From Balanoglossus misakiensis (lineage: Eukaryota > Animalia > Hemichordata), in the NCBI GenBank assembly GCA_040954595.2, contig JBECUI020000029.1:289333-353332 (forward strand): 64,000 bases of DNA. The letters run 5' to 3'. The position numbers were made by a program, and so were the translations under genes. Positions 332 through 34,067 of this stretch are shown in pieces. Position 1 is the first letter of the stretch; the number at the start of each line of letters is the position of its first letter. The notes beneath the pieces were generated by a model. The model worked only from the letters and a program-made list of their open reading frames with translations. It was not told where the DNA came from and made no database searches.

Positions 332-364
332 GTGAGTGTAATTGCAAATTTGCCTATTCTAGAT

Positions 365-9500: not shown

Positions 9501-10845
9501 CAAAGAGCTTGGCACCTGTTGAAATGAACTCATCTGCTGTGGGCCAGTTTATTGGTGGCAGTTGAGCTGAGCAGAGCACCTTCCTTCCCGGCACGCCACC
9601 AAGTAAAGTTCCACGCCGCCCACCACAGATGCCAGCATTCATTCATGCGAGTGAGTGTAATTGCAAATTTGCCTATTCTAGATCTGTAATGGAAATGGAG
9701 AAAGTACCTTATATTTTCTGTAAAATAGACATTTAATTGGCAAGCCGTCCTGCATCAATTATGAATTGTGTACATGCACTAAAGCGCCCTCACTGCTGGG
9801 TGTGTTGTATGGTCTTTAACCCTGTTTCAAATTAGAGTACTTTCTGCAATTTCAAGACAGATCTTACGTGCCATTGGAGAGCTCCATTGACTGGTCATTC
9901 ATACTGTTTTCATTCATTCATTGCGGCATCAATATATTTTATCTATTCTAGCCAAAGAGCTTGGCACCTGTTGAAATGAACTCATCTGCTGTGGGCCAGT
10001 TTATTGGTGGCAGTTGAGCTGAGAAGAGCACCTTCCTTCCCGGCACGCCACCAAGTAAAGTTCCACGCCGCCCACCACAGATGCCAGCATTCATTCATGC
10101 GAGTGAGTGTAATTGCAAATTTGCCTATTCTAGATCTGTAATGGAAATGGAGAAAGTACCTTATATTTTCTGTAAAATAGACATTTAATTGGCAAGCCGT
10201 CCTGCATCAATTATGAATTGTGTACATGCACTAAAGCGCCCTCACTGCTGGGTGTGTTGTATGGTCTTTAACCCTGTTTCAAATTAGAGTACTTTCTGCA
10301 ATTTCAAGACAGATCTTACGTGCCATTGGAGAGCTCCATTGACTGGTCATTCATACTGTTTTCATTCATTCATTGCGGCATCAATATATTTTATCTATTC
10401 TAGCCAAAGAGCTTGGCACCTGTTGAAATGAACTCATCTGCTGTGGGCCAGTTTATTGGTGGCAGTTGAGCTGAGGAGAGCACCTTCCTTCCCGGCACGC
10501 CACCAAGTAAAGTTCCACGCCGCCCACCACAGATGCCAGCATTCATTCATGCGAGTGAGTGTAATTGCAAATTTGCCTATTCTAGATCTGTAATGGAAAT
10601 GGAGAAAGTACCTTATATTTTCTGTAAAATAGACATTTAATTGGCAAGCCGTCCTGCATCAATTATTAATTGTGTACATGCACTAAAGCGCCCTCACTGC
10701 TGGGTGTGTTGTATGGTCTTTAACCCTGTTTCAAATTAGAGTACTTTCTGCAATTTCAAGACAGATCTTACGTGCCATTGGAGAGCTCCATTGACTGGTC
10801 ATTCATACTGTTTTCATTCATTCATTGCGGCATCAATATATTTTA

Positions 10846-11269
10846 CAGCCGAAATTATGAAAGGTCGCCGATTCAATATGTGATCTAGACGTCCTGTGTG
10901 CACTGAACACACGATGTGTTTATCTAACACAAACAACAGAACCTCTCATAAAAGAGATGCGGTATCATTAGACTAATTACAGATGGTAGTCTGGAAACAC
11001 GCTCCCCCTCAGAGAGAGTTGTTTACTTGGGTACGATGTCAAAGTTTAATCTCAAAGTGTATACGCTTTATGTTGAGAGTGTACCCAAGTAAACAACTCT
11101 CTCTGAGGGGGAGCGTGTTTCCAGACTACCATCTGTAATTAGTCTAATGATACCGCATCTCTTTTATGAGAGGTTCTGTTGTTTGTGTTAGATAAACACA
11201 TCGTGTGTTCAGTGCACACAGGACGTCTAGATCACATATTGAATCGGCGACCTTTCATAATTTCGGCTG
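10846..11269. mobile_element. 424-bp MITE with 189-bp terminal inverted repeats and TA target-site duplication (Tc1/mariner-type)
   Basis: CAGCCGAAATTATGAAAGG...CCTTTCATAATTTCGGCTG. Arms 10846-11034 and 11081-11269 with a 46-bp spacer. TA at 10844-45 and 11270-71; the empty site TTTTATCT is seen in the other monomers. Confidence 0.95.
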
Positions 11270-11383
11270 TATCTATTCTAGCCAAAGAGCTTGGCACCTG
11301 TTGAAATGAACTCATCTGCTGTGGGCCAGTTTATTGGTGGCAGTTGAGCTGAGGAGAGCACCTTCCTTCCCGGCACGCCACCA

Positions 11384-13190
11384 AGTACAGTTCCACGTGC
11401 ATTCCTGGCCCTGGTTTTATTTATGTTTACAGACAATATTGCATTTTTGTACAAGTATTTTAATCAACTATAAATTTTGAATGTGTCATTTACCTGAACC
11501 GGTCATGTTGACCAGAATGATACATTTCTGCCTTCACTCACCCTATAAATATGTGATTGAGACATAGGTCATTTGCATAAGCTAACATACCAGAAAGTAA
11601 GCATATCTGTTGTTTTCCCTGTGTCACTGCCATCAAAGTAAAAATTAGACGTTGTGTAGAGCAAACTCCAATTTTTTGTTCTCAATAAACATGGATGAAT
11701 TACATAGAATGTGTTTGTTGTTTACAGTCTTTAAATGACACATTAGATTATGCACTTTACAAAACGTTTCTGAGAAACAAGTGACTAACTAGTTTCTTTC
11801 CACTGTGGCCAACGTGGTTCACTGTTTGTGTCAGAATCTCTCTGTTTTGCAAGGATTTTGAAATCATAGTGGTGACATGCATAGTGAAAATCAGCTACTT
11901 TCAAATGTCCGTCATGTTCATGCTGTAATTGAATTTTCAAAGCTGGGCTGGCGTGTTTTTTCTTATTTACATAAGTATCACACTTTATACATGTATCTTC
12001 ATGGGGTTTTTTGAGTCCCGTATTTAGGTCCTCTCTCACAATTTTACGAAATATCGTATAACTGACAGTTGTTCTTCCCAGAAGAGATTGGTTGGTTATG
12101 AACTCTCGGTGTAACTGCGATATACTGTGGGCCGGCGCCAGGTACGGTTTAAATCGAGGATTCCTGCAGTAGTGAGATTCTACAATTCTGTGCCTGCGTA
12201 CGTGTTCAGTGATATCAGTCAGCAAATTTGGATTGAGTTTCCGACGATGCCCTTTGTGTCGGCCCCTTGCATCTGGCATCAGACCAGTAAAGTTCCATGT
12301 GCATTCCTGGCCCTGGTTTTATTTATGTTTACAGACAATATTGCATTTTTGTACAAGTATTTTAATCAACTATAAATTTTGAATGTGTCATTTACCTGAA
12401 CCGGTCATGTTGACCAGAATGATACATTTCTGCCTTCACTCACCCTATAAATATGTGATTGAGACATAGGTCATTTGCATAAGCTAACATACCAGAAAGT
12501 AAGCATATCTGATGTTTTCCCTGTGTCACTGCCATCAAAGTAAAAATTAGACGTTGTGTAGAGCAAACTCCAATTTTTTGTTCTCAATAAACATGGATGA
12601 ATTACATAGAATGTGTTTGTTGTTTACAGTCTTTAAATGACACATTAGATTATGCACTTTACAAAACGTTTCTGAGAAACAAGTGACTAACTAGTTTCTT
12701 TCCACTGTGGCCAACGTGGTTCACTGTTTGTGTCAGAATCTCTCTGTTTTGCAAGGATTTTGAAATCATAGTGGTGACATGCATAGTGAAAATCAGCTAC
12801 TTTCAAATGTCCGTCATGTTCATGCTGTAATTGAATTTTCAAAGCTGGGCTGGCGTGTTTTTTCTTATTTACATAAGTATCACACTTTATACATGTATCT
12901 TCATGGGGTTTTCTGAGTCCCGTATTTAGGTCCTCTCTCACAATTTTACGAAATATCGTATAACTGACAGTTGTTCTTCCCAGAAGAGATTGGTTGGTTA
13001 TGAACTCTCGGTGTAACTGCGATATACTGTGGTCCGGCGCCAGGTACGGTTTAAATCGAGGATTCCTGCAGTAGTGAGATTCTACAATTCTGTGCCTGCG
13101 TACGTGTTCAGTGATATCAGTCAGCAAATTTGGATTGAGTTTCCGACGATGCCCTTTGTGTCGGCCCCTTGCATCTGGCATCAGACCAGT
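11384..13190. repeat. 902-bp tandem duplication inside the cassette
   Basis: 11384-12285 repeats as 12286-13187 with a few substitutions. AGT microhomology at the join (12286-88). ORF ends 11785 and 12687 differ by 902. Confidence 0.97.
11785..12279 (-). pseudogene. 5'-truncated duplicate of the transposase N-terminal-half ORF (164 aa)
   Basis: Matches the last 164 aa of the 12687 ORF apart from D>A and R>K. Created by the 902-bp duplication. Confidence 0.85.
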
Positions 13191-13643
13191 TGAACAGTGC
13201 ATCATTTTGCTTAGAACGGTTCTAGTCCGCCTCTCACTAATGCCAAATAATTTCAGGAATGCATTTTTGCAGACAGTAACCGTTTCACCGCCTTCATTCA
13301 CCAGGTGATAACGAACCGATTTCTTGTGTGACTTCATCTGCATATCCATCAGTTTGTAGAGCATCAAGTTCTGTTCATTATACACGCGACCATCAAAATA
13401 TTTTCTCGTGGTGCCTAAAACATGCGTACTCCCAAGCTTCCGCAGACAATTCCCTTGAACGCAGGCGCATTCCAAGGAAAGACTGTCAATATCTGGAAAA
13501 GGGCGATTTTTCCTTGGTTTTTGTCTCGGACACGTCTTTTTAGAATTCCTACGTGGCTTGTTGGCTCGAGCTGACAGTTCGGTTCTGCGTTGCTGCCACA
13601 CAGGAATGGGTTCCCACGCATAAGCAACTCCCCGGCAGGCCAT
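12687..13643 (-). CDS. Transposase N-terminal half (Sola1/DUF7869-like; putative DNA-binding and CxxC region)
   Basis: Motifs VCKNAFLKLFGIS, DARGRH, ESHYCR...YL, VSYTIFRKI, KPHEDTCIKCD are typical of the region preceding the catalytic core in this family. First ATG at 13643; intact frame. Confidence 0.8.
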   Translation of the reverse strand: MACRGVAYAWEPIPVWQQRRTELSARANKPRRNSKKTCPRQKPRKNRPFPDIDSLSLECACVQGNCLRKLGSTHVLGTTRKYFDGRVYNEQNLMLYKLMDMQMKSHKKSVRYHLVNEGGETVTVCKNAFLKLFGISERRTRTVLSKMMHCSTGLMPDARGRHKGHRRKLNPNLLTDITEHVRRHRIVESHYCRNPRFKPYLAPDHSISQLHREFITNQSLLGRTTVSYTIFRKIVREDLNTGLRKPHEDTCIKCDTYVNKKKHASPALKIQLQHEHDGHLKVADFHYACHHYDFKILAKQRDSDTNSEPRWPQWKETS

Positions 13644-13690
13644 GGTCACAGCTGAAGTATTTGTTCAAGTACTGACTGACTAAACGCGGC

Positions 13691-14824
13691 ATGGAACAAA
13701 CGAACGAACGACTTCACGTTCGGAAAAAAAATCGTTGCGAGCTGTTGGGTGCATGCCTCTATAGTTGTCGGCAACCGTTCTTTTTTATTGCTAAACAATG
13801 CTGTCAGAGCATGGAAGGTGTGGTGGAAAACGAACAGAGGTTTTGTACGACCAACGATTGGATGGTGCTACATATGGACTTCCACAAGTCATTGCCGGTT
13901 CCTAAACTCAGCTCTGAAGACTTTTACTTTAAATCGAAATTGCAAATGAAGCTCCTTGGAATTTACAACGGGACAACGGAAAAGATGCATTGTTATGTAT
14001 GGACAGAGCTCGATAGCAGAAAGTCTCCCGATGAAGTTATTACCTGTCTAAATCACTTTTTTTATAACTCGGGTGTGACCAGCAGACATGCAGTTATTTA
14101 CAGCGACAACTGCCGTGCCGAATTCAAGTGTGGGAAGTTAATGTTTTACTATGACTATCTGTTACGAAAGGGCGTGTTTCGACGAATTGACTATAAAACT
14201 CTTGTGGCTGGACACACGTACTCCACCTGTGACCGAGTTTTTGCGTCCATTGAAAGGCATGCAAGTCGTTTCCAGAGTATAGAGACACCTCACGATTGGA
14301 CATCTGTGATTCGAGGATCTTCTCTGAATGGGAACATTGGAGTTACGGAGATGACTCACAGAGACTTTTTCAATTATTCTGATTTCCTGAAAAATGAGTA
14401 CGTTGTGCGTTATGCAGATACAAACAATGTAACTTTTTACTACCAAGCCATGCACTATTTTAATTTTGGAGAAGGAGAAAGGCTTGATACCGACGGCAAC
14501 CTCAGAACATTTAGTCATGCAGATAAAGTTTGGGTGAGAACATCTCTAGATCCAAGCGAGACCCCGATTGTAGTCGACTTTAGAAAGAAGAAGCAGAACC
14601 GGCGTTTACAAGATTGTACGCTGAACAAACTTTATCAGGAACGTCGACCACTGGCGAGCAAAGTTTGGCGGGATCTTCAGAGTTTAGCCAAAAATTACCT
14701 GTCTCCGGAGGCAATAGAATTTTATAGGAATCTACCGCTTCAGGAGAGTAGTGGCACCTCTGCAGACCCGTACGCCTTTCATGATGATGACGACGACGAT
14801 GATGATGATATGGGCGGTGGTTGA
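13691..14824 (+). CDS. Transposase catalytic half (RNase H-like DDD core, Sola1/DUF7869-like)
   Basis: Motifs HMDFHKSLPVP, CYVWTE...SPDEVITCL, IYSDNC, GHTYSTCDRVFASIE; acidic tail; AATAAA overlaps the stop (14824-14829). The true start may be ATG 13811. Confidence 0.85.
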   Translation: MEQTNERLHVRKKNRCELLGACLYSCRQPFFFIAKQCCQSMEGVVENEQRFCTTNDWMVLHMDFHKSLPVPKLSSEDFYFKSKLQMKLLGIYNGTTEKMHCYVWTELDSRKSPDEVITCLNHFFYNSGVTSRHAVIYSDNCRAEFKCGKLMFYYDYLLRKGVFRRIDYKTLVAGHTYSTCDRVFASIERHASRFQSIETPHDWTSVIRGSSLNGNIGVTEMTHRDFFNYSDFLKNEYVVRYADTNNVTFYYQAMHYFNFGEGERLDTDGNLRTFSHADKVWVRTSLDPSETPIVVDFRKKKQNRRLQDCTLNKLYQERRPLASKVWRDLQSLAKNYLSPEAIEFYRNLPLQESSGTSADPYAFHDDDDDDDDDMGGG

Positions 14825-14985
14825 ATAAACTGTCCTTTTCATGACGACAGTGATTTTGGATATTTGATGTGCGTGCACAGTTTATATGTAATATTTTCAC
14901 ACGAACGAGTTTTGACTGAATTTGATTAAAGAATGTACTCGATAATTAACAAATGTGCTGAATCGTGGTTATTATGTTGTTAATT

Positions 14986-15025
14986 TTTGTTTGTTTGTTT
15001 GTTTGTTTGTTTGTTTGTTTGTTTG
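14986..15025 (+). repeat. (TTTG)10 microsatellite
   Basis: Read directly; also present in copy 2 near 33730-33769. Confidence 0.95.
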
Positions 15026-15158
15026 TAAACAATTTCCGTTCATTCAACTGGCTACAAAGTTGGATTTTTGTACTGGGAAGCGATAAACTCGCACATCAAA
15101 ACCGGGGAGACTCGATCATTTTTCCCTGCAGGTAGCCTGAAAAGCACCCGGGCAGAGA

Positions 15159-15231
15159 TTACGTCATATATGGTCCACTTTAATACGAAATTATGCAAAT
15201 GTGACATTTCACGGAAACGGCGTATATAAAA
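15159..15231 (+). promoter_or_regulatory. Putative Pol II promoter of the SET gene
   Basis: CRE-like TTACGTCA (15159), octamer ATGCAAAT (15193) and TATAAAA (15225-15231), about 95 bp upstream of ATG 15324. Confidence 0.55.
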
Positions 15232-15323
15232 GCGACCCTGGGCTATTGTTCGGAATGCGTCATCGACGAGAGAGTGACTGATAATTCTTCTACCTCGAGT
15301 CAACCATTCTGTATATACTGAAC

Positions 15324-16664
15324 ATGGCTAGCTGGCGCAGGAAGAGACAAGGCAATGTGCGGTCTGTAATCAACGAACGGCACCGCTCAGTTCAGTGTCC
15401 CTTTCTTCAAAAGTGGATCGGTGAGCAATTGGTATTTTCAGGTCGTTCAGAGGATGAAGTCCAGTCCAGTACTGTATTTGAGAGCTACAAATGTTGGGTT
15501 GAAAACTATTCGTCGGCGGACAATCAAGTAATGATTATGGTTACTAAAGCTCGATTTTTCAAGGTGAGAATGATCGCATTTTTCTTTCCCCCCCCCCCCT
15601 CCCTCCCTCCCTCCCTCCCCCAAGGGACTCGTTTTCTGTCTCTTTTAAACCTGTAACTTAACGAAAAGGAAGTTTTTCACATATCTCTTCGTTGACACTA
15701 TAGCAATTTGGAGCGCGGATGCTTCAAGAGAAGAGCGTTACCAAATCAAAGTCGGCCGGGGTTAATATTTATAGAGGTGTTCGTCTGAAAGCTGGTTCGC
15801 GAAGAATCTCAACGGGGAAACCTGAGCACAGTGTACTTCAGACCAGGGCAAGGGCATTTCTTGATGACGCCAGCGTGACCGTTCCGATCGAGGTAAGAAT
15901 GGTGTTTTGTTTGGACTAGGACAATAGAACGTTGCAATGAGTGTGTCAATGGGTGTCCAAGTGCAAACGTGGTCTGCTTCTGTCCACAAATGCCATTAAT
16001 TTTTGGCAGGATTTATAAAATTGTCAATGAAGAATACAAAAATGAAAAACAACAGTTAATAGCAAACTGGTAGGATTGCAAGGGCTTGTAAAACGGTACA
16101 CACTGTACCAGGAAGTTTGCAACACTAATGAAGAATGTATATGATATATTTAGGTGAGAACTGTTCGCGATCGCCGGGACGCAGGACGGTGCGCGTTTTC
16201 GACGAGGGATATTCAAGCCTGGGACGTCGTCTGCGAATACCGGGGCACGGTTATTAGCGTTGAAGAAGCTAGTCGGCGTGATGAGCTTTACAGGGCAGAG
16301 GGGAAACGACCACGCATGTTCCATCTCTACATTGGAAAGAGACACGTTGTGTGAGTGTATCACTTAGTCGAATATATGGTCATATATTGCAAAGCATCTG
16401 TCGAAATAGAAAACGTAATATTGTCTATATTTTCCTCATTAACGCAGCATTGACGGATACGATGTCCCAGCCGGTGAAGAAAATTTAGCAGGCCTAATAA
16501 ATCACAGTCAGCAGAACGCCAACTTGGTACCGGTTCGGATCGGAGAGCGCCTGGTTTTCTTTGCAACCAGGAATCTTTGTCAGGGAGTAGAGCTTTTGTA
16601 TGATTACGGTGACGGGGGTGAAGAGGATTTCTTCAGTGGTTCTCAAACTTTTCCTGAAAATTAA
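15324..16664 (+). CDS. Spliced SET-domain protein (SETD8/PR-Set7-like) with N-terminal winged-helix-like region; exons 15324-15563, 15704-15892, 16154-16350, 16448-16664; 280 aa
   Basis: Three GT-AG introns with matching phases (0, 0, 2) give one open frame. SET motifs GRCAFSTRDI, VCEYRG, IDG, LAGLINHS, ELLYDYGD. Confidence 0.9.
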
Positions 16665-17570
16665 GGCATTAACACATCAACGCTTCGGGGTGTCGTAACG
16701 GCGGCGCGGCGGGGGGGGGGGGGGGGACGTGAAAATGTTTGTATCAGGAACAAAATTCCCGTGCAAATCACCTTGATCCGGGTGGGTGGACTATTCGCGA
16801 CAAATGTTGAAATCATACAAAGCATTTTACTTAATTAACCCATTTTTTTCATTTATTTGTTTACAGTTTACAACGTCATAGAGAAGTTGAACTAGAGACT
16901 GGATCAGCGTGGGTGACACCATAGTACACCAATGTTTTCTTCAGTTTGATTCAATTGTAATTTAAAACTGAGATTGCCTAACGCTTTCCCAGATTTTTTT
17001 AACCACTGAGAAACTGTGGGTTTTTTTCTGGGTTTTGGTGCGAGGTGATCTCAGTCAGTGGTGTTAATTTAATTAATCATTTTCTTTTCCTATTTACGTC
17101 GACTGAAATGTATTTTGATAGGTGATAGTCATACCATAAAAAAAATCTTACGGCGCGACTGCCAAAATGTACATTTATTTGTCCGTTCCAAGTTATTTTG
17201 TGTATGTGTGATGGGTGCCGGTGACTGTGCAGGGTTGATTTCCCTAGAGCGACTGTTATATTCGTTTTCCAACGATGATGAATTTACATGTTATTTGCTT
17301 GGCATTTTGACGCAGAGACACTTCTGAAAACACAAACCTATTAATTATGCCACGGGTGTAAATTGATCACATTAAAAGAGGCTTTAGACGTTTGCCGCGA
17401 GCTCCTGGTGGGCAGAATCTTGTCAGCCCAAATTTGACTATAAGTACATAGCCAATGATGTGACGCTCTCCCACATCCTTCGCCGCGCCTTTTCGCTGAT
17501 TTACAGCATCTTGCGTAAACACTGTCATTTGATCTTGCTTGGCAGAAGTCAACTTGCTCTATACTACATT

Positions 17571-17936
17571 ATGGCGGCCAAGCTCAACTGCATATCAGAT
17601 AATGCCAAGGAGCGTTTGAGAGGCATCCTCGCCAGAAGGAGTCGCGTTTCCGGTGACTGTGTGCTCTGGACGGGTGCAGCTTGTCGAAACGGCTATGGCT
17701 CTATTACGTTCAGAGATGAGAACACTCTAACCGCCTATGTCCATCACATTGCACTCCTAATTAACGGAGTGCAATTGGTGGGCAGGCGGTTAGAGTGTTC
17801 TCATCTTTGCAACGAAAAGCTATGCATCCGCCCAGAGCACATTGTCCAGGAAACGCGACTCCTAAACATTTCACGAAAGACGTGCTTTAAATCCCCAAAA
17901 GGGGAGTGTCACCACGATCCCAGGTGCCTAAGGTGA
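17571..17936 (+). CDS. His-Cys box / His-Me finger endonuclease (zinc-binding loop homing-endonuclease type)
   Basis: CVLWTG...GYG, YVHH, SHLCNEKLCIRPEHI...E...N.SRKTC...CHHDPRC. ATG at 17571. The stop lies within AG|GTGAGT, a possible splice donor. Confidence 0.85.
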   Translation: MAAKLNCISDNAKERLRGILARRSRVSGDCVLWTGAACRNGYGSITFRDENTLTAYVHHIALLINGVQLVGRRLECSHLCNEKLCIRPEHIVQETRLLNISRKTCFKSPKGECHHDPRCLR

Positions 17937-18844
17937 GTAATCCTCTTCTCATTTGATATGTATTGTGTGACCCTGCAGTTGAAACGCTTTCATCAATAAT
18001 TTGCGGCGCGTGGGTAATCTCGGTGTTATTGACAATGCAGCCGGCCCAAACATTTTTAAATTAACACTGTTTCTGACTGTATTAACGAAATGTCCAATTT
18101 GCAAGTAGCCTATAGACAACCCTTTTGAATGAGTTTTGTCTCGTTGAGATTTTATACATAAGGAACAATCTAGATTTATTTTAGAAGACACTGTTCTTTT
18201 AAAACAGCTAGCATAATACAGCTAAATTTCGGAATTTCCGGACAATTTTCGGAATTCCTTTTAAATTTGAGAAATTTTTCATCAGATATAAGTGTTACTA
18301 TTTATTGGACATGTTTTTATCATTGTTTACTTTTTAAGGTCATTCTCACCCCCCCCCCCCCAAAAAAAGCCGCTTTAGGCTTCATGTTCAGTAAAAAATC
18401 TGGAAAGTTCAGCTGAATTTTACACTGATCACACATTTTTGGGAAGGTCTGGCGCAAAATAAAGGATGACAAATGTAAATCTAATGTCACATTTGTAAAC
18501 CTCTAAGTATTGTACACTCATTCTATTAAGTATATGCAAATAGTACGGATAATTTTTTCGGAATGTGGAATTCCGAAATTAGTTCGGAACGTGTTAGCAG
18601 TGAAGAGATCACCACTGAGGGTTGGAAGGCCTTGCCAGAAATTAACGCGTAAAGTACGCCCTCACAGGCCATGTAAACAAGGTCAAATAAGGCCGTCTGG
18701 CAAACGAATGATTAATTCAACGCGCCATTTGAGCCGAGCTGAGTTGGTCTGAGTTGCGTATCACACAGACTTAGGCTGAATGTCAGTGGAGTAACCAGTC
18801 CGTTTTAGATTTACCAATGATGTGAATTTAATTTCTTCACCCAG

Positions 18845-19250
18845 AAAAACAGAACACAACTTGTCTGCAACATGATGCTGGAGGTGACACATGACAGAGA
18901 AGTGGATCCGCGTTGTCAACACAGATGCCAGCATTCAAAAGGGGAGTGCCACCTGCTAAAATCAACTCATCTGCTGTTGGCCCATTTTACCTGTGGCAAC
19001 TGTTCAGAGGAGACAACGTTTATTCCGTGCAAGCCAACACGCAATGTTGGGGTCTACCTGTCAACACAGATGCAAGCATTCATGTGAGTGAGTATCAGGA
19101 CTGACCTTGTATTTGCTGAATAATTCATAATGCCTATTTTAGAATTCTTAGAGGCATTTGGAGTTCATTGCCTGGTCAACCAAACTACACCCCTTAACAG
19201 CTGAAACAAAATGCGTATTGTGTTCATTCATTCATTGCATCAATATATAT
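18845..19250 (+). other. Diverged homolog of the satellite monomer (exon 18845-~19087 plus intron-like sequence)
   Basis: Shares CACCTG..AAAT.AACTCATCTGCTGT.GGCC, CACAGATGC.AGCATTCAT, GAGTGAGT, TGCCTATT.TAGAATTCTTA and TTCATTCATTCATTGC with the monomer, in the same order. Acceptor TTTCTTCACCCAG at 18844. Confidence 0.85.
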
Positions 19251-19555
19251 AGGCAACATGAGTATCAAGTAGCACTATTTGTTTACGATTGTATTCATGA
19301 AAACTTCCCACTAACAATTCCACAGTTAATATTGAACACATTTATCCAACAAGGTCAAAAGAAAAAGGGAATCTTCTGGTTCCAAAATACGCCACAAATG
19401 TGGGTCAACATACAGTGAAATATTATGGTGCTCAAATATGCAACATATCAAATCTGTCTCATCAAAGTCATGCTTTAAAAAAGAATTGAAAAGGTATTAT
19501 TTATCCATTTGACTGCTGTATTTTCAGAAGGAAAACAAACTGAATTTGGTTTTTC

Positions 19556-22500
19556 AAGTACCTTATATTTTCTGTAAAATAGACATTTAATTGGCAAGCC
19601 GTCCTGCATCAATTATTAATTGTGTACATGCACTAAAGCGCCCTCACTGCTGGGTGTGTTGTATGGTCTTTAACCCTGTTTCAAATTAGAGTACTTTCTG
19701 CAATTTCAAGACAGATCTTACGTGCCATTGGAGAGCTCCATTGACTGGTCATTCATACTGTTTTCATTCATTCATTGCGGCATCAATATATTTTATCTAT
19801 TCTAGCCAAAGAGCTTGGCACCTGTTGAAATGAACTCATCTGCTGTGGGCCAGTTTATTGGTGGCAGTTGAGCTGAGGAGAGCACCTTCCTTCCCGGCAC
19901 GCCACCAAGTAAAGTTCCACGCCGCCCACCACAGATGCCAGCATTCATTCATGCGAGTGAGTGTAATTGCAAATTTGCCTATTCTAGATCTGTAATGGAA
20001 ATGGAGAAAGTACCTTATATTTTCTGTAAAATAGACATTTAATTGGCAAGCCGTCCTGCATCAATTATTAATTGTGTACATGCACTAAAGCGCCCTCACT
20101 GCTGGGTGTGTTGTATGGTCTTTAACCCTGTTTCAAATTAGAGTACTTTCTGCAATTTCAAGACAGATCTTACGTGCCATTGGAGAGCTCCATTGACTGG
20201 TCATTCATACTGTTTTCATTCATTCATTGCGGCATCAATATATTTTATCTATTCTAGCCAAAGAGCTTGGCACCTGTTGAAATGAACTCATCTGCTGTGG
20301 GCCAGTTTATTGGTGGCAGTTGAGCTGAGGAGAGCACCTTCCTTCCCGGCACGCCACCAAGTAAAGTTCCACGCCGCCCACCACAGATGCCAGCATTCAT
20401 TCATGCGAGTGAGTGTAATTGCAAATTTGCCTATTCTAGATCTGTAATGGAAATGGAGAAAGTACCTTATATTTTCTGTAAAATAGACATTTAATTGGCA
20501 AGCCGTCCTGCATCAATTATTAATTGTGTACATGCACTAAAGCGCCCTCACTGCTGGGTGTGTTGTATGGTCTTTAACCCTGTTTCAAATTAGAGTACTT
20601 TCTGCAATTTCAAGACAGATCTTACGTGCCATTGGAGAGCTCCATTGACTGGTCATTCATACTGTTTTCATTCATTCATTGCGGCATCAATATATTTTAT
20701 CTATTCTAGCCAAAGAGCTTGGCACCTGTTGAAATGAACTCATCTGCTGTGGGCCAGTTTATTGGTGGCAGTTGAGCTGAGGAGAGCACCTTCCTTCCCG
20801 GCACGCCACCAAGTAAAGTTCCACGCCGCCCACCACAGATGCCAGCATTCATTCATGCGAGTGAGTGTAATTGCAAATTTGCCTATTCTAGATCTGTAAT
20901 GGAAATGGAGAAAGTACCTTATATTTTCTGTAAAATAGACATTTAATTGGCAAGCCGTCCTGCATCAATTATTAATTGTGTACATGCACTAAAGCGCCCT
21001 CACTGCTGGGTGTGTTGTATGGTCTTTAACCCTGTTTCAAATTAGAGTACTTTCTGCAATTTCAAGACAGATCTTACGTGCCATTGGAGAGCTCCATTGA
21101 CTGGTCATTCATACTGTTTTCATTCATTCATTGCGGCATCAATATATTTTATCTATTCTAGCCAAAGAGCTTGGCACCTGTTGAAATGAACTCATCTGCT
21201 GTGGGCCAGTTTATTGGTGGCAGTTGAGCTGAGGAGAGCACCTTCCTTCCCGGCACGCCACCAAGTAAAGTTCCACGCCGCCCACCACAGATGCCAGCAT
21301 TCATTCATGCGAGTGAGTGTAATTGCAAATTTGCCTATTCTAGATCTGTAATGGAAATGGAGAAAGTACCTTATATTTTCTGTAAAATAGACATTTAATT
21401 GGCAAGCCGTCCTGCATCAATTATTAATTGTGTACATGCACTAAAGCGCCCTCACTGCTGGGTGTGTTGTATGGTCTTTAACCCTGTTTCAAATTAGAGT
21501 ACTTTCTGCAATTTCAAGACAGATCTTACGTGCCATTGGAGAGCTCCATTGACTGGTCATTCATACTGTTTTCATTCATTCATTGCGGCATCAATATATT
21601 TTATCTATTCTAGCCAAAGAGCTTGGCACCTGTTGAAATGAACTCATCTGCTGTGGGCCAGTTTATTGGTGGCAGTTGAGCTGAGGAGAGCACCTTCCTT
21701 CCCGGCACGCCACCAAGTAAAGTTCCACGCCGCCCACCACAGATGCCAGCATTCATTCATGCGAGTGAGTGTAATTGCAAATTTGCCTATTCTAGATCTG
21801 TAATGGAAATGGAGAAAGTACCTTATATTTTCTGTAAAATAGACATTTAATTGGCAAGCCGTCCTGCATCAATTATTAATTGTGTACATGCACTAAAGCG
21901 CCCTCACTGCTGGGTGTGTTGTATGGTCTTTAACCCTGTTTCAAATTAGAGTACTTTCTGCAATTTCAAGACAGATCTTACGTGCCATTGGAGAGCTCCA
22001 TTGACTGGTCATTCATACTGTTTTCATTCATTCATTGCGGCATCAATATATTTTATCTATTCTAGCCAAAGAGCTTGGCACCTGTTGAAATGAACTCATC
22101 TGCTGTGGGCCAGTTTATTGGTGGCAGTTGAGCTGAGGAGAGCACCTTCTTTCCCGGCACGCCACCAAGTAAAGTTCCACGCCGCCCACCACAGATGCCA
22201 GCATTCATTCATGCGAGTGAGTGTAATTGCAAATTTGCCTATTTACGTGCCATTGGAGAGCTCCATTGACTGGTCATTCATACTGTTTTCATTCATTCAT
22301 TGCGGCATCAATATATTTTATCTATTCTAGCCAAAGAGCTTGGCACCTGTTGAAATGAACTCATCTGCTGTGGGCCAGTTTATTGGTGGCAGTTGAGCTG
22401 AGGAGAGCACCTTCCTTCCCGGCACGCCACCAAGTAAAGTTCCACGCCGCCCACCACAGATGCCAGCATTCATTCATGCGAGTGAGTGTAATTGCAAATT

Positions 22501-25500
22501 TGCCTATTCTAGATCTGTAATGGAAATGGAGAAAGTACCTTATATTTTCTGTAAAATAGACATTTAATTGGCAAGCCGTCCTGCATCAATTATTAATTGT
22601 GTACATGCACTAAAGCGCCCTCACTGCTGGGTGTGTTGTATGGTCTTTAACCCTGTTTCAAATTAGAGTACTTTCTGCAATTTCAAGACAGATCTTACGT
22701 GCCATTGGAGAGCTCCATTGACTGGTCATTCATACTGTTTTCATTCATTCATTGCGGCATCAATATATTTTATCTATTCTAGCCAAAGAGCTTGGCACCT
22801 GTTGAAATGAACTCATCTGCTGTGGGCCAGTTTATTGGTGGCAGTTGAGCTGAGGAGAGCACCTTCCTTCCCGGCACGCCACCAAGTAAAGTTCCACGCC
22901 GCCCACCACAGATGCCAGCATTCATTCATGCGAGTGAGTGTAATTGCAAATTTGCCTATTCTAGAATTCTTACGTGCCATTGGAGAGCTCCATTGACTGG
23001 TCATTCATACTGTTTTCATTCATTCATTGCGGCATCAATATATTTTATCTATTCTAGCCAAAGAGCTTGGCACCTGTTGAAATGAACTCATCTGCTGTGG
23101 GCCAGTTTATTGGTGGCAGTTGAGCTGAGGAGAGCACCTTCCTTCCCGGCACGCCACCAAGTAAAGTTCCACGCCGCCCACCACAGATGCCAGCATTCAT
23201 TCATGCGAGTGAGTGTAATTGCAAATTTGCCTATTCTAGATCTGTAATGGAAATGGAGAAAGTACCTTATATTTTCTGTAAAATAGACATTTAATTGGCA
23301 AGCCGTCCTGCATCAATTATTAATTGTGTACATGCACTAAAGCGCCCTCACTGCTGGGTGTGTTGTATGGTCTTTAACCCTGTTTCAAATTAGAGTACTT
23401 TCTGCAATTTCAAGACAGATCTTACGTGCCATTGGAGAGCTCCATTGACTGGTCATTCATACTGTTTTCATTCATTCATTGCGGCATCAATATATTTTAT
23501 CTATTCTAGCCAAAGAGCTTGGCACCTGTTGAAATGAACTCATCTGCTGTGGGCCAGTTTATTGGTGGCAGTTGAGCTGAGGAGAGCACCTTCTTTCCCG
23601 GCACGCCACCAAGTAAAGTTCCACGCCGCCCACCACAGATGCCAGCATTCATTCATGCGAGTGAGTGTAATTGCAAATTTGCCTATTCTAGAATCTTACG
23701 TGCCATTGGAGAGCTCCATTGACTGGTCATTCATACTGTTTTCATTCATTCATTGCGGCATCAATATATTTTATCTATTCTAGCCAAAGAGCTTGGCACC
23801 TGTTGAAATGAACTCATCTGCTGTGGGCCAGTTTATTGGTGGCAGTTGAGCTGAGGAGAGCACCTTCTTTCCCGGCACGCCACCAAGTAAAGTTCCACGC
23901 CGCCCACCACAGATGCCAGCATTCATTCATGCGAGTGAGTGTAATTGCAAATTTGCCTATTTACGTGCCATTGGAGAGCTCCATTGACTGGTCATTCATA
24001 CTGTTTTCATTCATTCATTGCGGCATCAATATATTTTATCTATTCTAGCCAAAGAGCTTGGCACCTGTTGAAATGAACTCATCTGCTGTGGGCCAGTTTA
24101 TTGGTGGCAGTTGAGCTGAGGAGAGCACCTTCCTTCCCGGCACGCCACCAAGTAAAGTTCCACGCCGCCCACCACAGATGCCAGCATTCATTCATGCGAG
24201 TGAGTGTAATTGCAAATTTGCCTATTCTAGATCTGTAATGGAAATGGAGAAAGTACCTTATATTTTCTGTAAAATAGACATTTAATTGGCAAGCCGTCCT
24301 GCATCAATTATTAATTGTGTACATGCACTAAAGCGCCCTCACTGCTGGGTGTGTTGTATGGTCTTTAACCCTGTTTCAAATTAGAGTACTTTCTGCAATT
24401 TCAAGACAGATCTTACGTGCCATTGGAGAGCTCCATTGACTGGTCATTCATACTGTTTTCATTCATTCATTGCGGCATCAATATATTTTATCTATTCTAG
24501 CCAAAGAGCTTGGCACCTGTTGAAATGAACTCATCTGCTGTGGGCCAGTTTATTGGTGGCAGTTGAGCTGAGGAGAGCACCTTCTTTCCCGGCACGCCAC
24601 CAAGTAAAGTTCCACGCCGCCCACCACAGATGCCAGCATTCATTCATGCGAGTGAGTGTAATTGCAAATTTGCCTATTCTAGAATCTTACGTGCCATTGG
24701 AGAGCTCCATTGACTGGTCATTCATACTGTTTTCATTCATTCATTGCGGCATCAATATATTTTATCTATTCTAGCCAAAGAGCTTGGCACCTGTTGAAAT
24801 GAACTCATCTGCTGTGGGCCAGTTTATTGGTGGCAGTTGAGCTGAGGAGAGCACCTTCTTTCCCGGCACGCCACCAAGTAAAGTTCCACGCCGCCCACCA
24901 CAGATGCCAGCATTCATTCATGCGAGTGAGTGTAATTGCAAATTTGCCTATTCTAGAATCTTACGTGCCATTGGAGAGCTCCATTGACTGGTCATTCATA
25001 CTGTTTTCATTCATTCATTGCGGCATCAATATATTTTATCTATTCTAGCCAAAGAGCTTGGCACCTGTTGAAATGAACTCATCTGCTGTGGGCCAGTTTA
25101 TTGGTGGCAGTTGAGCTGAGGAGAGCACCTTCCTTCCCGGCACGCCACCAAGTAAAGTTCCACGCCGCCCACCACAGATGCCAGCATTCATTCATGCGAG
25201 TGAGTGTAATTGCAAATTTGCCTATTCTAGAATCTTACGTGCCATTGGAGAGCTCCATTGACTGGTCATTCATACTGTTTTCATTCATTCATTGCGGCAT
25301 CAATATATTTTATCTATTCTAGCCAAAGAGCTTGGCACCTGTTGAAATGAACTCATCTGCTGTGGGCCAGTTTATTGGTGGCAGTTGAGCTGAGGAGAGC
25401 ACCTTCCTTCCCGGCACGCCACCAAGTAAAGTTCCACGCCGCCCACCACAGATGCCAGCATTCATTCATGCGAGTGAGTGTAATTGCAAATTTGCCTATT

Positions 25501-28500
25501 CTAGAATCTTACGTGCCATTGGAGAGCTCCATTGACTGGTCATTCATACTGTTTTCATTCATTCATTGCGGCATCAATATATTTTATCTATTCTAGCCGA
25601 AGAGCTTGGCACCTGTTGAAATGAACTCATCTGCTGTGGGCCAGTTTATTGGTGGCAGTTGAGCTGAGGAGAGCACCTTCCTTCCCGGCACGCCACCAAG
25701 TAAAGTTCCACGCCGCCCACCACAGATGCCAGCATTCATTCATGCGAGTGAGTGTAATTGCAAATTTGCCTATTCTAGATCTGTAATGGAAATGGAGAAA
25801 GTACCTTATATTTTCTGTAAAATAGACATTTAATTGGCAAGCCGTCCTGCATCAATTATTAATTGTGTACATGCACTAAAGCGCCCTCACTGCTGGGTGT
25901 GTTGTATGGTCTTTAACCCTGTTTCAAATTAGAGTACTTTCTGCAATTTCAAGACAGATCTTACGTGCCATTGGAGAGCTCCATTGACTGGTCATTCATA
26001 CTGTTTTCATTCATTCATTGCGGCATCAATATATTTTATCTATTCTAGCCAAAGAGCTTGGCACCTGTTGAAATGAACTCATCTGCTGTGGGCCAGTTTA
26101 TTGGTGGCAGTTGAGCTGAGGAGAGCACCTTCCTTCCCGGCACGCCACCAAGTAAAGTTCCACGCCGCCCACCACAGATGCCAGCATTCATTCATGCGAG
26201 TGAGTGTAATTGCAAATTTGCCTATTCTAGATTCTTACGTGCCATTGGAGAGCTCCATTGACTGGTCATTCATACTGTTTTCATTCATTCATTGCGGCAT
26301 CAATATATTTTATCTATTCTAGCCAAAGAGCTTGGCACCTGTTGAAATGAACTCATCTGCTGTGGGCCAGTTTATTGGTGGCAGTTGAGCTGAGGAGAGC
26401 ACCTTCCTTCCCGGCACGCCACCAAGTAAAGTTCCACGCCGCCCACCACAGATGCCAGCATTCATTCATGCGAGTGAGTGTAATTGCAAATTTGCCTATT
26501 CTAGAATCTTACGTGCCATTGGAGAGCTCCATTGACTGGTCATTCATACTGTTTTCATTCATTCATTGCGGCATCAATATATTTTATCTATTCTAGCCAA
26601 AGAGCTTGGCACCTGTTGAAATGAACTCATCTGCTGTGGGCCAGTTTATTGGTGGCAGTTGAGCTGAGGAGAGCACCTTCCTTCCCGGCACGCCACCAAG
26701 TAAAGTTCCACGCCGCCCACCACAGATGCCAGCATTCATTCATGCGAGTGAGTGTAATTGCAAATTTGCCTATTCTAGATCTGTAATGGAAATGGAGAAA
26801 GTACCTTATATTTTCTGTAAAATAGACATTTAATTGGCAAGCCGTCCTGCATCAATTATTAATTGTGTACATGCACTAAAGCGCCCTCACTGCTGGGTGT
26901 GTTGTATGGTCTTTAACCCTGTTTCAAATTAGAGTACTTTCTGCAATTTCAAGACAGATCTTACGTGCCATTGGAGAGCTCCATTGACTGGTCATTCATA
27001 CTGTTTTCATTCATTCATTGCGGCATCAATATATTTTATCTATTCTAGCCAAAGAGCTTGGCACCTGTTGAAATGAACTCATCTGCTGTGGGCCAGTTTA
27101 TTGGTGGCAGTTGAGCTGAGGAGAGCACCTTCCTTCCCGGCACGCCACCAAGTAAAGTTCCACGCCGCCCACCACAGATGCCAGCATTCATTCATGCGAG
27201 TGAGTGTAATTGCAAATTTGCCTATTCTAGATCTGTAATGGAAATGGAGAAAGTACCTTATATTTTCTGTAAAATAGACATTTAATTGGCAAGCCGTCCT
27301 GCATCAATTATTAATTGTGTACATGCACTAAAGCGCCCTCACTGCTGGGTGTGTTGTATGGTCTTTAACCCTGTTTCAAATTAGAGTACTTTCTGCAATT
27401 TCAAGACAGATCTTACGTGCCATTGGAGAGCTCCATTGACTGGTCATTCATACTGTTTTCATTCATTCATTGCGGCATCAATATATTTTATCTATTCTAG
27501 CCAAAGAGCTTGGCACCTGTTGAAATGAACTCATCTGCTGTGGGCCAGTTTATTGGTGGCAGTTGAGCTGAGGAGAGCACCTTCCTTCCCGGCACGCCAC
27601 CAAGTAAAGTTCCACGCCGCCCACCACAGATGCCAGCATTCATTCATGCGAGTGAGTGTAATTGCAAATTTGCCTATTCTAGATCTGTAATGGAAATGGA
27701 GAAAGTACCTTATATTTTCTGTAAAATAGACATTTAATTGGCAAGCCGTCCTGCATCAATTATTAATTGTGTACATGCACTAAAGCGCCCTCACTGCTGG
27801 GTGTGTTGTATGGTCTTTAACCCTGTTTCAAATTAGAGTACTTTCTGCAATTTCAAGACAGATCTTACGTGCCATTGGAGAGCTCCATTGACTGGTCATT
27901 CATACTGTTTTCATTCATTCATTGCGGCATCAATATATTTTATCTATTCTAGCCAAAGAGCTTGGCACCTGTTGAAATGAACTCATCTGCTGTGGGCCAG
28001 TTTATTGGTGGCAGTTGAGCTGAGGAGAGCACCTTCCTTCCCGGCACGCCACCAAGTAAAGTTCCACGCCGCCCACCACAGATGCCAGCATTCATTCATG
28101 CGAGTGAGTGTAATTGCAAATTTGCCTATTCTAGATCTGTAATGGAAATGGAGAAAGTACCTTATATTTTCTGTAAAATAGACATTTAATTGGCAAGCCG
28201 TCCTGCATCAATTATTAATTGTGTACATGCACTAAAGCGCCCTCACTGCTGGGTGTGTTGTATGGTCTTTAACCCTGTTTCAAATTAGAGTACTTTCTGC
28301 AATTTCAAGACAGATCTTACGTGCCATTGGAGAGCTCCATTGACTGGTCATTCATACTGTTTTCATTCATTCATTGCGGCATCAATATATTTTATCTATT
28401 CTAGCCAAAGAGCTTGGCACCTGTTGAAATGAACTCATCTGCTGTGGGCCAGTTTATTGGTGGCAGTTGAGCTGAGGAGAGCACCTTCCTTCCCGGCACG

Positions 28501-30141
28501 CCACCAAGTAAAGTTCCACGCCGCCCACCACAGATGCCAGCATTCATTCATGCGAGTGAGTGTAATTGCAAATTTGCCTATTCTAGATCTGTAATGGAAA
28601 TGGAGAAAGTACCTTATATTTTCTGTAAAATAGACATTTAATTGGCAAGCCGTCCTGCATCAATTATTAATTGTGTACATGCACTAAAGCGCCCTCACTG
28701 CTGGGTGTGTTGTATGGTCTTTAACCCTGTTTCAAATTAGAGTACTTTCTGCAATTTCAAGACAGATCTTACGTGCCATTGGAGAGCTCCATTGACTGGT
28801 CATTCATACTGTTTTCATTCATTCATTGCGGCATCAATATATTTTATCTATTCTAGCCAAAGAGCTTGGCACCTGTTGAAATGAACTCATCTGCTGTGGG
28901 CCAGTTTATTGGTGGCAGTTGAGCTGAGGAGAGCACCTTCCTTCCCGGCACGCCACCAAGTAAAGTTCCACGCCGCCCACCACAGATGCCAGCATTCATT
29001 CATGCGAGTGAGTGTAATTGCAAATTTGCCTATTCTAGATCTGTAATGGAAATGGAGAAAGTACCTTATATTTTCTGTAAAATAGACATTTAATTGGCAA
29101 GCCGTCCTGCATCAATTATTAATTGTGTACATGCACTAAAGCGCCCTCACTGCTGGGTGTGTTGTATGGTCTTTAACCCTGTTTCAAATTAGAGTACTTT
29201 CTGCAATTTCAAGACAGATCTTACGTGCCATTGGAGAGCTCCATTGACTGGTCATTCATACTGTTTTCATTCATTCATTGCGGCATCAATATATTTTATC
29301 TATTCTAGCCAAAGAGCTTGGCACCTGTTGAAATGAACTCATCTGCTGTGGGCCAGTTTATTGGTGGCAGTTGAGCTGAGGAGAGCACCTTCTTTCCCGG
29401 CACGCCACCAAGTAAAGTTCCACGCCGCCCACCACAGATGCCAGCATTCATTCATGCGAGTGAGTGTAATTGCAAATTTGCCTATTTACGTGCCATTGGA
29501 GAGCTCCATTGACTGGTCATTCATACTGTTTTCATTCATTCATTGCGGCATCAATATATTTTATCTATTCTAGCCAAAGAGCTTGGCACCTGTTGAAATG
29601 AACTCATCTGCTGTGGGCCAGTTTATTGGTGGCAGTTGAGCTGAGGAGAGCACCTTCCTTCCCGGCACGCCACCAAGTAAAGTTCCACGCCGCCCACCAC
29701 AGATGCCAGCATTCATTCATGCGAGTGAGTGTAATTGCAAATTTGCCTATTCTAGATCTGTAATGGAAATGGAGAAAGTACCTTATATTTTCTGTAAAAT
29801 AGACATTTAATTGGCAAGCCGTCCTGCATCAATTATTAATTGTGTACATGCACTAAAGCGCCCTCACTGCTGGGTGTGTTGTATGGTCTTTAACCCTGTT
29901 TCAAATTAGAGTACTTTCTGCAATTTCAAGACAGATCTTACGTGCCATTGGAGAGCTCCATTGACTGGTCATTCATACTGTTTTCATTCATTCATTGCGG
30001 CATCAATATATTTTATCTATTCTAGCCAAAGAGCTTGGCACCTGTTGAAATGAACTCATCTGCTGTGGGCCAGTTTATTGGTGGCAGTTGAGCTGAGGAG
30101 AGCACCTTCCTTCCCGGCACGCCACCAAGTAAAGTTCCACG
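19556..30141 (+). repeat. Satellite array block 2
   Basis: Same monomers. Begins mid-monomer at AAGTACCTTATA (19556) and ends at AAAGTTCCACG (30141). Confidence 0.99.
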
Positions 30142-30528
30142 TGCATTCCTGGCCCTGGTTTTATTTATGTTTACAGACAATATTGCATTTTTGTACAAGT
30201 ATTTTAATCAACTATAAATTTTGAATGTGTCATTTACCTGAACCGGTCATGTTGACCAGAATGATACATTTCTGCCTTCACTCACCCTATAAATATGTGA
30301 TTGAGACATAGGTCATTTGCATAAGCTAACATACCAGAAAGTAAGCATATCTGTTGTTTTCCCTGTGTCACTGCCATCAAAGTAAAAATTAGACGTTGTG
30401 TAGAGCAAACTCCAATTTTTTGTTCTCAATAAACATGGATGAATTACATAGAATGTGTTTGTTGTTTACAGTCTTTAAATGACACATTAGATTATGCACT
30501 TTACAAAACGTTTCTGAGAAACAAGTGA

Positions 30529-31023
30529 CTAACTAGTTTCTTTCCACTGTGGCCAACGTGGTTCACTGTTTGTGTCAGAATCTCTCTGTTTTGCAAGGAT
30601 TTTGAAATCATAGTGGTGACATGCATAGTGAAAATCAGCTACTTTCAAATGTCCGTCATGTTCATGCTGTAATTGAATTTTCAAAGCTGGGCTGGCGTGT
30701 TTTTTCTTATTTACATAAGTATCACACTTTATACATGTATCTTCATGGGGTTTTTTGAGTCCCGTATTTAGGTCCTCTCTCACAATTTTACGAAATATCG
30801 TATAACTGACAGTTGTTCTTCCCAGAAGAGATTGGTTGGTTATGAACTCTCGGTGTAACTGCGATATACTGTGGGCCGGCGCCAGGTACGGTTTAAATCG
30901 AGGATTCCTGCAGTAGTGAGATTCTACAATTCTGTGCCTGCGTACGTGTTCAGTGATATCAGTCAGCAAATTTGGATTGAGTTTCCGACGATGCCCTTTG
31001 TGTCGGCCCCTTGCATCTGGCAT
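30529..31023 (-). pseudogene. 5'-truncated duplicate of transposase N-half, copy 2
   Basis: Same as 11785-12279, offset 18744. Confidence 0.85.
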
Positions 31024-31430
31024 CAGACCAGTAAAGTTCCATGTGCATTCCTGGCCCTGGTTTTATTTATGTTTACAGACAATATTGCATTTTTGTACAA
31101 GTATTTTAATCAACTATAAATTTTGAATGTGTCATTTACCTGAACCGGTCATGTTGACCAGAATGATACATTTCTGCCTTCACTCACCCTATAAATATGT
31201 GATTGAGACATAGGTCATTTGCATAAGCTAACATACCAGAAAGTAAGCATATCTGATGTTTTCCCTGTGTCACTGCCATCAAAGTAAAAATTAGACGTTG
31301 TGTAGAGCAAACTCCAATTTTTTGTTCTCAATAAACATGGATGAATTACATAGAATGTGTTTGTTGTTTACAGTCTTTAAATGACACATTAGATTATGCA
31401 CTTTACAAAACGTTTCTGAGAAACAAGTGA

Positions 31431-32387
31431 CTAACTAGTTTCTTTCCACTGTGGCCAACGTGGTTCACTGTTTGTGTCAGAATCTCTCTGTTTTGCAAGG
31501 ATTTTGAAATCATAGTGGTGACATGCATAGTGAAAATCAGCTACTTTCAAATGTCCGTCATGTTCATGCTGTAATTGAATTTTCAAAGCTGGGCTGGCGT
31601 GTTTTTTCTTATTTACATAAGTATCACACTTTATACATGTATCTTCATGGGGTTTTCTGAGTCCCGTATTTAGGTCCTCTCTCACAATTTTACGAAATAT
31701 CGTATAACTGACAGTTGTTCTTCCCAGAAGAGATTGGTTGGTTATGAACTCTCGGTGTAACTGCGATATACTGTGGTCCGGTGCCAGGTACGGTTTAAAT
31801 CGAGGATTCCTGCAGTAGTGAGATTCTACAATTCTGTGCCTGCGTACGTGTTCAGTGATATCAGTCAGCAAATTTGGATTGAGTTTCCGACGATGCCCTT
31901 TGTGTCGGCCCCTTGCATCTGGCATCAGACCAGTTGAACAGTGCATCATTTTGCTTAGAACGGTTCTAGTCCGCCTCTCACTAATGCCAAATAATTTCAG
32001 GAATGCATTTTTGCAGACAGTAACCGTTTCACCGCCTTCATTCACCAGGTGATAACGAACCGATTTCTTGTGTGACTTCATCTGCATATCCATCAGTTTG
32101 TAGAGCATCAAGTTCTGTTCATTATACACGCGACCATCAAAATATTTTCTCGTGGTGCCTAAAACATGCGTACTCCCAAGCTTCCGCATACAATTCCCTT
32201 GAACGCAGGCGCATTCCAAGGAAAGACTGTCAATATCTGGAAAAGGGCGATTTTTCCTTGGTTTTTGTCTCGGACACGTCTTTTTAGAATTCCTACGTGG
32301 CTTGTTGGCTCGAGCTGACAGTTCGGTTCTGCGTTGCTGCCACACAGGAATGGGTTCCCACGCATAAGCAACTCCCCGGCAGGCCAT
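31431..32387 (-). CDS. Transposase N-terminal half, copy 2
   Basis: Same as copy 1 except one L>M change (GNCLRK/GNCMRK). Confidence 0.8.
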   Translation of the reverse strand: MACRGVAYAWEPIPVWQQRRTELSARANKPRRNSKKTCPRQKPRKNRPFPDIDSLSLECACVQGNCMRKLGSTHVLGTTRKYFDGRVYNEQNLMLYKLMDMQMKSHKKSVRYHLVNEGGETVTVCKNAFLKLFGISERRTRTVLSKMMHCSTGLMPDARGRHKGHRRKLNPNLLTDITEHVRRHRIVESHYCRNPRFKPYLAPDHSISQLHREFITNQSLLGRTTVSYTIFRKIVREDLNTGLRKPHEDTCIKCDTYVNKKKHASPALKIQLQHEHDGHLKVADFHYACHHYDFKILAKQRDSDTNSEPRWPQWKETS

Positions 32388-32434
32388 GGTCACAGCTGAA
32401 GTATTTGTTCAAGTACTGACTGACTAAACGCGGC

Positions 32435-33568: not shown

Positions 33569-34067
33569 ATAAACTGTCCTTTTCATGACGACAGTGATTT
33601 TGGATATTTGATGTGCGTGCACAGTTTATATGTAATATTTTCACACGAACGAGTTTTGACTGAATTTGATTAAAGAATGTACTCGATAATTAACAAATGT
33701 GCTGAATCGTGGTTATTATGTTGTTAATTTTTGTTTGTTTGTTTGTTTGTTTGTTTGTTTGTTTGTTTGTAAACAATTTCCGTTCATTCAACTGGCTACA
33801 AAGTTGGATTTTTGTACTGGGAAGCGATAAACTCGCACATCAAAACCGGGGAGACTCGATCATTTTTCCCTGCAGGTAGCCTGAAAAGCACCCGGGCAGA
33901 GATTACGTCATATATGGTCCACTTTAATACGAAATTATGCAAATGTGACATTTCACGGAAACGGCGTATATAAAAGCGACCCTGGGCTATTGTTCGGAAT
34001 GCGTCATCGACGAGAGAGTGACTGATAATTCTTCTACCTCGAGTCAACCATTCTGTATATACTGAAC

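Follow-up and report, generated by a model that had tools for sequence, protein, structure and literature searches.

We analysed a window of 64,000 nucleotides (nt) from the hemichordate Balanoglossus misakiensis (assembly GCA_040954595.2, contig JBECUI020000029.1, positions 289,333 to 353,332), in which two copies of a gene cassette lie within a satellite array. The cassette encodes a transposase split into two genes, a SET methyltransferase and a small His-Cys box nuclease. We tentatively favour the explanation that this cassette forms the coding part of a composite DNA transposon. The element's own repeats would have grown into the satellite, and unequal recombination, likely aided by the nuclease, would now multiply it. 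The transposon lineage is probably undescribed and Sola1-like. This explanation is supported by the near-identical copies, the open frames, the intact motifs, an old satellite monomer inside the cassette, a break between the transposase halves that recurs in relatives, and a hairpin within the nuclease gene.

The array left of the first copy (1..11397, + strand) consists of 452-, 274- and 265-bp monomers and meets the cassette at monomer position 207. Cassette copy 1 (11398..19555; 8,158 bp) takes the place of monomer positions 208-293, and the array (19556..30141, +) starts again at monomer position 294. Copy 2 (30142..38294) is 99.9% identical and also has open frames, and the final 25.7 kb of the window (38295..64000, +) is array without a cassette. 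An anchor search gave 126 monomer starts, with intervals of 452 bp (71), 274 bp (36), 275 bp (5) and 265 bp (11); the remaining two of the 125 intervals each contain one cassette. Array monomers are more than 99% alike, and the inter-cassette array contains a higher-order repeat of about 7.24 kb. Identity is likewise 99.9% between 11270-21345 and 30014-40084, the differences being three substitutions and three homopolymer lengths. The original prediction described an 18.7-kb head-to-tail macro-unit; the 8.2-kb cassette does recur, but the spacing is merely the distance between the only two cassettes in the window, since the order of monomers behind them agrees for 1,790 bp and then differs. 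The four predicted open frames were borne out, that of the SET gene only under a four-exon model. The observed/expected (o/e) CpG ratio is 0.84-1.31 in the cassette genes (11398-17936), which shows no depletion, while the satellite is depleted at 0.46.

Sequencing support came from contigs of two public DNA runs on one sample, which is possibly the source sample and hence not independent. These contigs span the cassette, the head-to-head transposase junction being bridged by two overlapping steps. Contig depth in run X1 was about 700-800 for the cassette versus 23-27 for the rarest variant contigs; the ratio hints at tens of cassette copies, though depth is no copy number. Near-identical letters in runs X3 and X4, from a second organism, had small shares and very low depth; they are probably carry-over and were left unused.

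The cassette also holds diverged satellite monomers of the 274-bp type (18914..19250, +; about 1.3 monomers). These match the array monomer with 71% identity over 151 columns (E 1.5e-14; nhmmer E 6e-18), in agreement with the earlier claim of a diverged internal monomer, and at the sequence level they support that cassette and satellite are related by descent. As the internal monomer aligns without a 178-bp segment carried by the 452-bp monomers, the 274-bp unit is the older type. The run contigs contain three or more further monomer variants related to the internal monomer (18936-19248), and so belong to a wider repeat family in this genome. In one run contig a different variant is attached to the same left cassette junction. 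From this contig and the internal monomer we infer that the link of cassette to satellite is old on the right and has been homogenised on the left.

The transposase is encoded by two divergent genes, which, judged by their motifs, are probably Sola1-like. The N-half (12687..13643, -; 318 amino acids, aa) carries Cys/His motifs, suggesting a DNA-binding role, and has a poly(A) signal downstream. The C-half (13811..14824, +; 337 aa) has an RNase H/integrase fold, an intact D23-D99-D141 triad and an AATAAA at its stop codon. The 167-bp spacer between the start codons (13644..13810) is CpG-rich (o/e 1.31) and may act as a bidirectional promoter. Since part of the copies have a 4-bp deletion at 13750, between the start codons, an upstream ATG at 13691 is disfavoured. 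A profile search agreed with the first reading of the proteins, returning a DUF7869 half-transposase (E 1.4e-14, Pfam), a SET domain and a PF05551 His-Cys box nuclease. The N-half had no Pfam match, and its structural model (predicted local distance difference test, pLDDT, 82) had no PDB match at E <= 0.001. The C-half model (pLDDT 92) resembles integrases and IstA, and the triad aspartates are kept in 49/50, 49/50 and 50/50 aligned proteins. An acidic low-complexity tail (14770-14821), missing in both relatives described below, ends the C-half, and a (TTTG)10 microsatellite lies downstream (14986-15026).

Relatives of the N-half are numerous, with 2,597 matches in a representative library. 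Both halves were matched by 69 of the 160 proteins examined, which shows that the ancestor was one protein of 600-700 aa. The top six of 150 N-half matches listed are 306-347 aa long and align end to end at 33-40% identity; a Trp/Pro tail similar to that of the window's N-half ends five of the six closest. The C-half search, restricted to proteins of 185-590 aa, gave two matches (51% and 47% identity), one of them from Saccoglossus kowalevskii. Both start at about the same point as the C-half, and a newer annotation has 38 additional, unrelated residues. The Met near the C-half start and the last residues of the N-half are conserved in kin at 33-52% identity, and the two halves together exceed the length of the fused linker. 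In a quick N-domain tree of 148 rows, from which six cluster members and segments shorter than 140 aa were excluded, the window's N-half falls in a group of 14 rows containing none of the 69 fused proteins (Shimodaira-Hasegawa-like approximate likelihood ratio test, SH-aLRT, 92); its named members are anthozoans. For both the closest N-half match and the closest C-half match the Logan contig is 2,400 bp long, which suggests one and the same contig and thereby linkage, though not orientation. Anthozoans and a hemichordate have relatives of the split transposase, in some cases twice on one contig. More distant relatives are fused, and the split is probably no accident.

One related locus was obtained, a 4,965-bp contig (L008) from a bacterial genome bin, encoding a split-type N-half with 29% identity and cnidarian relatives. 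Judged by these relatives it is probably animal-derived host DNA in the bacterial bin. Its sequence includes an imperfect palindrome of 78 bp at 3265-3342, besides an inverted pair of 16 bp at 2833/3019. Scans for gene context in viral contigs, metagenomes (four pattern matches, none related) and prokaryote genomes gave no confirmed relative. Trans-splicing of the two halves was considered and rejected, as the obvious donor and acceptor phases are mismatched by eye.

The nuclease (17571..17936, +; 121 aa) is of the His-Cys box (His-Me finger) type and matches PF05551 with E 6.7e-13 (Pfam). Aligned to I-PpoI it keeps the catalytic and zinc residues reported as conserved in the KolobokP paper (PMC9587614), namely S97, H98, H110, E114, N119 and two zinc sites. 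A homologue search with the nuclease found none, at low sensitivity. Most of its open reading frame (ORF) forms a bulged hairpin of 227 nt (17637..17863, +), coding in both arms and containing 99 pairs; an alignment of its arms has 88 matches in 97 positions, plus 25 gap positions. The predicted energy of the ORF was -191.6 kcal/mol versus -109 +/- 5 for 150 synonymous permutations, none of which folded as low (z about -15), and none of 200 dinucleotide shuffles reached it. As controls, seven windows in the other cassette genes had z between -1.5 and 2.4, and the values for three phage His-Me ORFs were -0.7, -0.5 and -2.6. One KolobokP nuclease gene, viewed by eye and not computed, showed short partial complementarity only. 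Pairing occurs in every one of the nine codon registers, and each arm encodes conserved motifs, which rules out a single recent inverted duplication as the origin. Instead, the hairpin may stem from selection, or from template switching that happened repeatedly, with selection on the protein filtering the products. It has five G-U pairs versus one A-C mismatch, an excess that leans weakly to a role in RNA.

The third gene, predicted at 15324..16664 (+) with a TATA box at 15223, joins a winged helix to a SET domain. Four GT-AG exons (15324-15563, 15704-15892, 16154-16350 and 16448-16664) are predicted to join into one open frame that encodes 280 aa. Exon 1 is similar to clusters of Pox_D5 winged helices (Atlas, with high confidence; the family is found on 25-71% of cluster members), and exons 3 and 4 make up the SET domain (Pfam). 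Exon 4 matches SETD8 entries (E about 1e-3) and 4LDG, and exon 3 scores KMT2C/D above SETD8. SETD8/PR-Set7 monomethylates lysine 20 of histone H4 on nucleosomes, and a Tyr at the SET switch position would favour monomethylation. A homologue search with exon 4 found none, at low sensitivity. Among 13 listed sites at which diverged variants of run X1 differ in exon 4, ten are third positions and nine are synonymous (p about 0.001-0.002). In two low-depth variants the end of the SET gene is followed immediately by 17104, a position upstream of the nuclease, and related families in this genome therefore seem to retain the gene order.

If the cassette is a composite transposon core, the steps may have been as follows. 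Short repeats of the element itself would have expanded into the surrounding satellite, and the cassette would then be copied by unequal recombination within the array, stimulated by nuclease cuts there. The two transposase halves would be co-expressed from the 167-bp spacer and act as one enzyme. The winged helix may direct the SET domain to DNA of the element itself, where it would place a favourable chromatin mark. The hairpin might act in RNA and keep the nuclease scarce, through blocked translation, editing or small RNAs, and such scarcity would limit damage to an array full of potential targets. A more far-reaching version, which we consider rather unlikely, is a self-propagating satellite system recurring across marine invertebrates, where a two-subunit transposase breeds the satellite, a hairpin-restrained nuclease cuts it and a targeted methyltransferase marks it.

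Several results weigh against the composite transposon. Inverted matches between the cassette ends do not exceed chance, with 68 of 200 shuffles scoring as high, and neither terminal inverted repeats (TIRs) nor a target duplication were found at these copies, though the true ends of the element may lie beyond the window. The monomer junction has no outstanding long palindromic site; the best semi-palindrome in the monomer (14/18, positions 12-29) lies away from it. In the tree the support for the 14-row group stays below 95, and 32 of the 43 rows labelled as stand-alone fall outside the group, amid fused proteins, so that ORF length alone may mirror exons or fragments. No genomic context links all four genes outside this species, and L008 lacks a C-half, SET or nuclease gene in its 3.9 kb of upstream sequence, the contig being cut at the 3' end of the gene. 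The asymmetry of G-U to A-C in the hairpin is just 5 to 1. The exon 4 listing comprises the best-supported sites only, one of the 13 giving a stop codon if standing alone.

The strongest competing explanation, which seems somewhat unlikely to us, is a passive passenger: an intact multi-gene transposon, or a recent fragment of one, lodged in a satellite of common ancestry with its internal repeats, lost its ends and was duplicated by ordinary array turnover, its genes doing nothing for the array. This would account for only two cassettes per 126 monomers, without fixed spacing, and for the cassette junctions, both of which are blunt joins into monomers without TIRs. The cassette-free 7.24-kb higher-order repeat shows that the array amplifies on its own, further inserted elements are also trapped in it, and near-identical copies would stay open-framed even without selection. 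However, the 29% divergence of the internal monomer and the second variant at the left junction make the link old, the hairpin implies selection on nuclease control, and this kind of nuclease, compared by eye, is tied to direct-repeat multimers in KolobokP.

It is improbable that the cassette belongs to a larger element, either virus-like or a giant mobile one, with the winged helix, SET domain and nuclease as accessory proteins and the split transposase as integrase. The Atlas neighbours of the winged helix and the nuclease are mostly phage, virus and bacterial clusters, and CpG is not depleted in the genes of the cassette (o/e 0.84-0.99, against 0.46 for the satellite). The cassette has, on the other hand, no capsid, polymerase or helicase gene, but does have predicted spliceosomal introns, a TATA box and poly(A) signals, and the scans of viral contigs gave no confirmed relative except three distant phage His-Me ORFs.

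We regard as quite improbable that the genes are host-domesticated machinery which marks, cuts or eliminates the satellite, as in centromere maintenance, programmed elimination or drive. Such a role would suit a homogeneous array with a higher-order repeat, and the presence of a chromatin writer, a nuclease and a transposase within it, every frame intact; yet the diverged multi-copy variants and the split-transposase relatives in anthozoans and a hemichordate resemble a mobile family and not a single host locus. Very improbable is a dead element whose transposase, once an ordinary two-exon gene, was broken by a local inversion: flipping the first half does yield this geometry, many of the short library matches are probably exons and L008 has no head-to-head partner, but the conserved residues at the N-half end and C-half start, the combined length in excess of the fused linker and the poly(A) signal on each half all speak against it.

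Other elements are inserted in the array and the cassette. A 178-bp segment with imperfect 28-bp inverted ends (example at 19986..20170) converts the 274-bp into the 452-bp monomer and is found in every 452-bp monomer. As it occurs with other flanks in the runs, some of them AT-rich, we consider it a separate miniature inverted-repeat transposable element (MITE) and not an end of the cassette element; it has been amplified within the satellite. The idea that the array is TIR-rich in its own right, with the transposase acting on those TIRs, hence found no support: the inverted repeats are those of the MITE, and the cassette ends have none. A fold-back MITE-like insert of 424 bp (10846..11269; 199-bp arms, 98% complementary, TA duplication) sits in one monomer directly ahead of copy 1 only. 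Being absent before copy 2, it is either younger than the cassette duplication or was lost afterwards; an Rfam scan gave a sole match on it, sub-threshold and microRNA-like. An older MITE-like insert with 23-bp inverted arms (18225..18596) is dispersed elsewhere in the genome, and contigs show loose ends at either of its borders. The four E-boxes of the monomer were considered as a signal and rejected, being within chance (17.5% of 2,000 shuffles).

At the left end of the cassette a tandem duplicate of 902 bp (11384..12288, -) repeats the 3' part of the N-half and its downstream region, 99.4% identical to 12286-13190 and without a start codon. It begins within the junction satellite monomer, and the X1 contig depth there is about twice that of the cassette. 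The duplication fits break repair at the junction monomer, without proving it. This duplicate, the Pox_D5-like fusion, the nuclease hairpin and two more inserted elements go beyond the original prediction.

The origin and continued expansion of satellite arrays is an open question, to which the usual answer is passive turnover. In this case the array itself contains enzymes with the potential to cut, copy and mark it, along with a traceable older monomer, which makes active amplification directly testable in a compact system of one 121-aa nuclease and one 274-bp substrate. Two features are unusual in their own right, the conserved DDD transposase in two genes and the nuclease ORF with conserved halves that pair nearly completely, and the winged-helix-SET fusion would be a candidate for a natural sequence-targeted chromatin writer.

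Among known systems, gene-bearing macrosatellites such as D4Z4/DUX4 are open genes amplified in tandem arrays, and Helitron central repeats exemplify satellites born from repeats inside transposons. Satellites of these types are known to hold one host-type gene or none, while here a transposase, a nuclease and a methyltransferase are found together. With Sola1 the cassette probably shares the DDD triad and the N-terminal Cys/His motifs of the fused relatives of 600-700 aa. The Sola1 transposons described so far carry a single ORF of about 630 aa, with TIRs and 4-bp target duplications of the form AWWT (PMC3845634), all missing here, where we find two divergent ORFs and no inverted match at the ends. 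SET methyltransferases on DNA transposons are known from HarbingerS, oomycete MuDR (both as cited in PMC12730594, and thought to alter their own chromatin) and SETMAR. These belong to other transposase superfamilies, and the account in that source reports no His-Me nuclease or satellite with them; in the cassette SET is fused to a D5-type winged helix.

The closest system is KolobokP (Kojima and Bao 2022, PMC9587614), which according to that paper joins a DDD/E transposase with an I-PpoI-like His-Me nuclease, direct repeats and tandem multimers in marine invertebrates. Its authors proposed, without proof, that it spreads by nuclease-induced unequal crossover, and a review (PMC13565253, 2026) uses it to exemplify transposons with a protein-guided homing-type nuclease, the model being unconfirmed. 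As far as these sources describe it, KolobokP shares with the cassette the transposase with a small I-PpoI-like nuclease, the direct repeats, the multimers, a marine invertebrate host and the proposed mechanism. The nuclease here resembles KolobokP nucleases by eye and has the I-PpoI-like residues and two zinc sites by which those are defined. The transposases differ: that of KolobokP is a single-ORF DDE enzyme that bears a C/DxxH signature and has zinc fingers within its catalytic core, ours a split DUF7869 D-D-D gene. KolobokP has terminal direct repeats of about 450 or 660 bp with short TIRs of their own and RR..YY ends, whereas we find satellite arrays with a 274-bp ancestral unit; the similarity of 452 bp to the 450-bp repeats was dismissed as coincidence, since 452 bp results from the insert. 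Its multimers share a repeat and are bounded by target duplications, while here 10.6 kb of array separates two cassettes and the array ends lie beyond the window. The winged-helix-SET gene is an addition relative to KolobokP, and the long hairpin in the nuclease ORF has no mention in the main text of the KolobokP paper. The cassette thus appears to work like KolobokP without being a KolobokP.

The original prediction did not recognise this gene combination from any described element. The open literature indeed yielded no split Sola-type transposase, such gene set or hairpin nuclease ORF, a search to which Repbase Reports, Dfam and subscription journals were external, so that an earlier description is possible; KolobokP, for its part, already joins a transposase, a His-Me nuclease, repeats and multimers. 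What appears to be new is a split transposase, a winged-helix-SET gene and a hairpin nuclease in a related satellite, and the logic of the composite transposon is already known from KolobokP.

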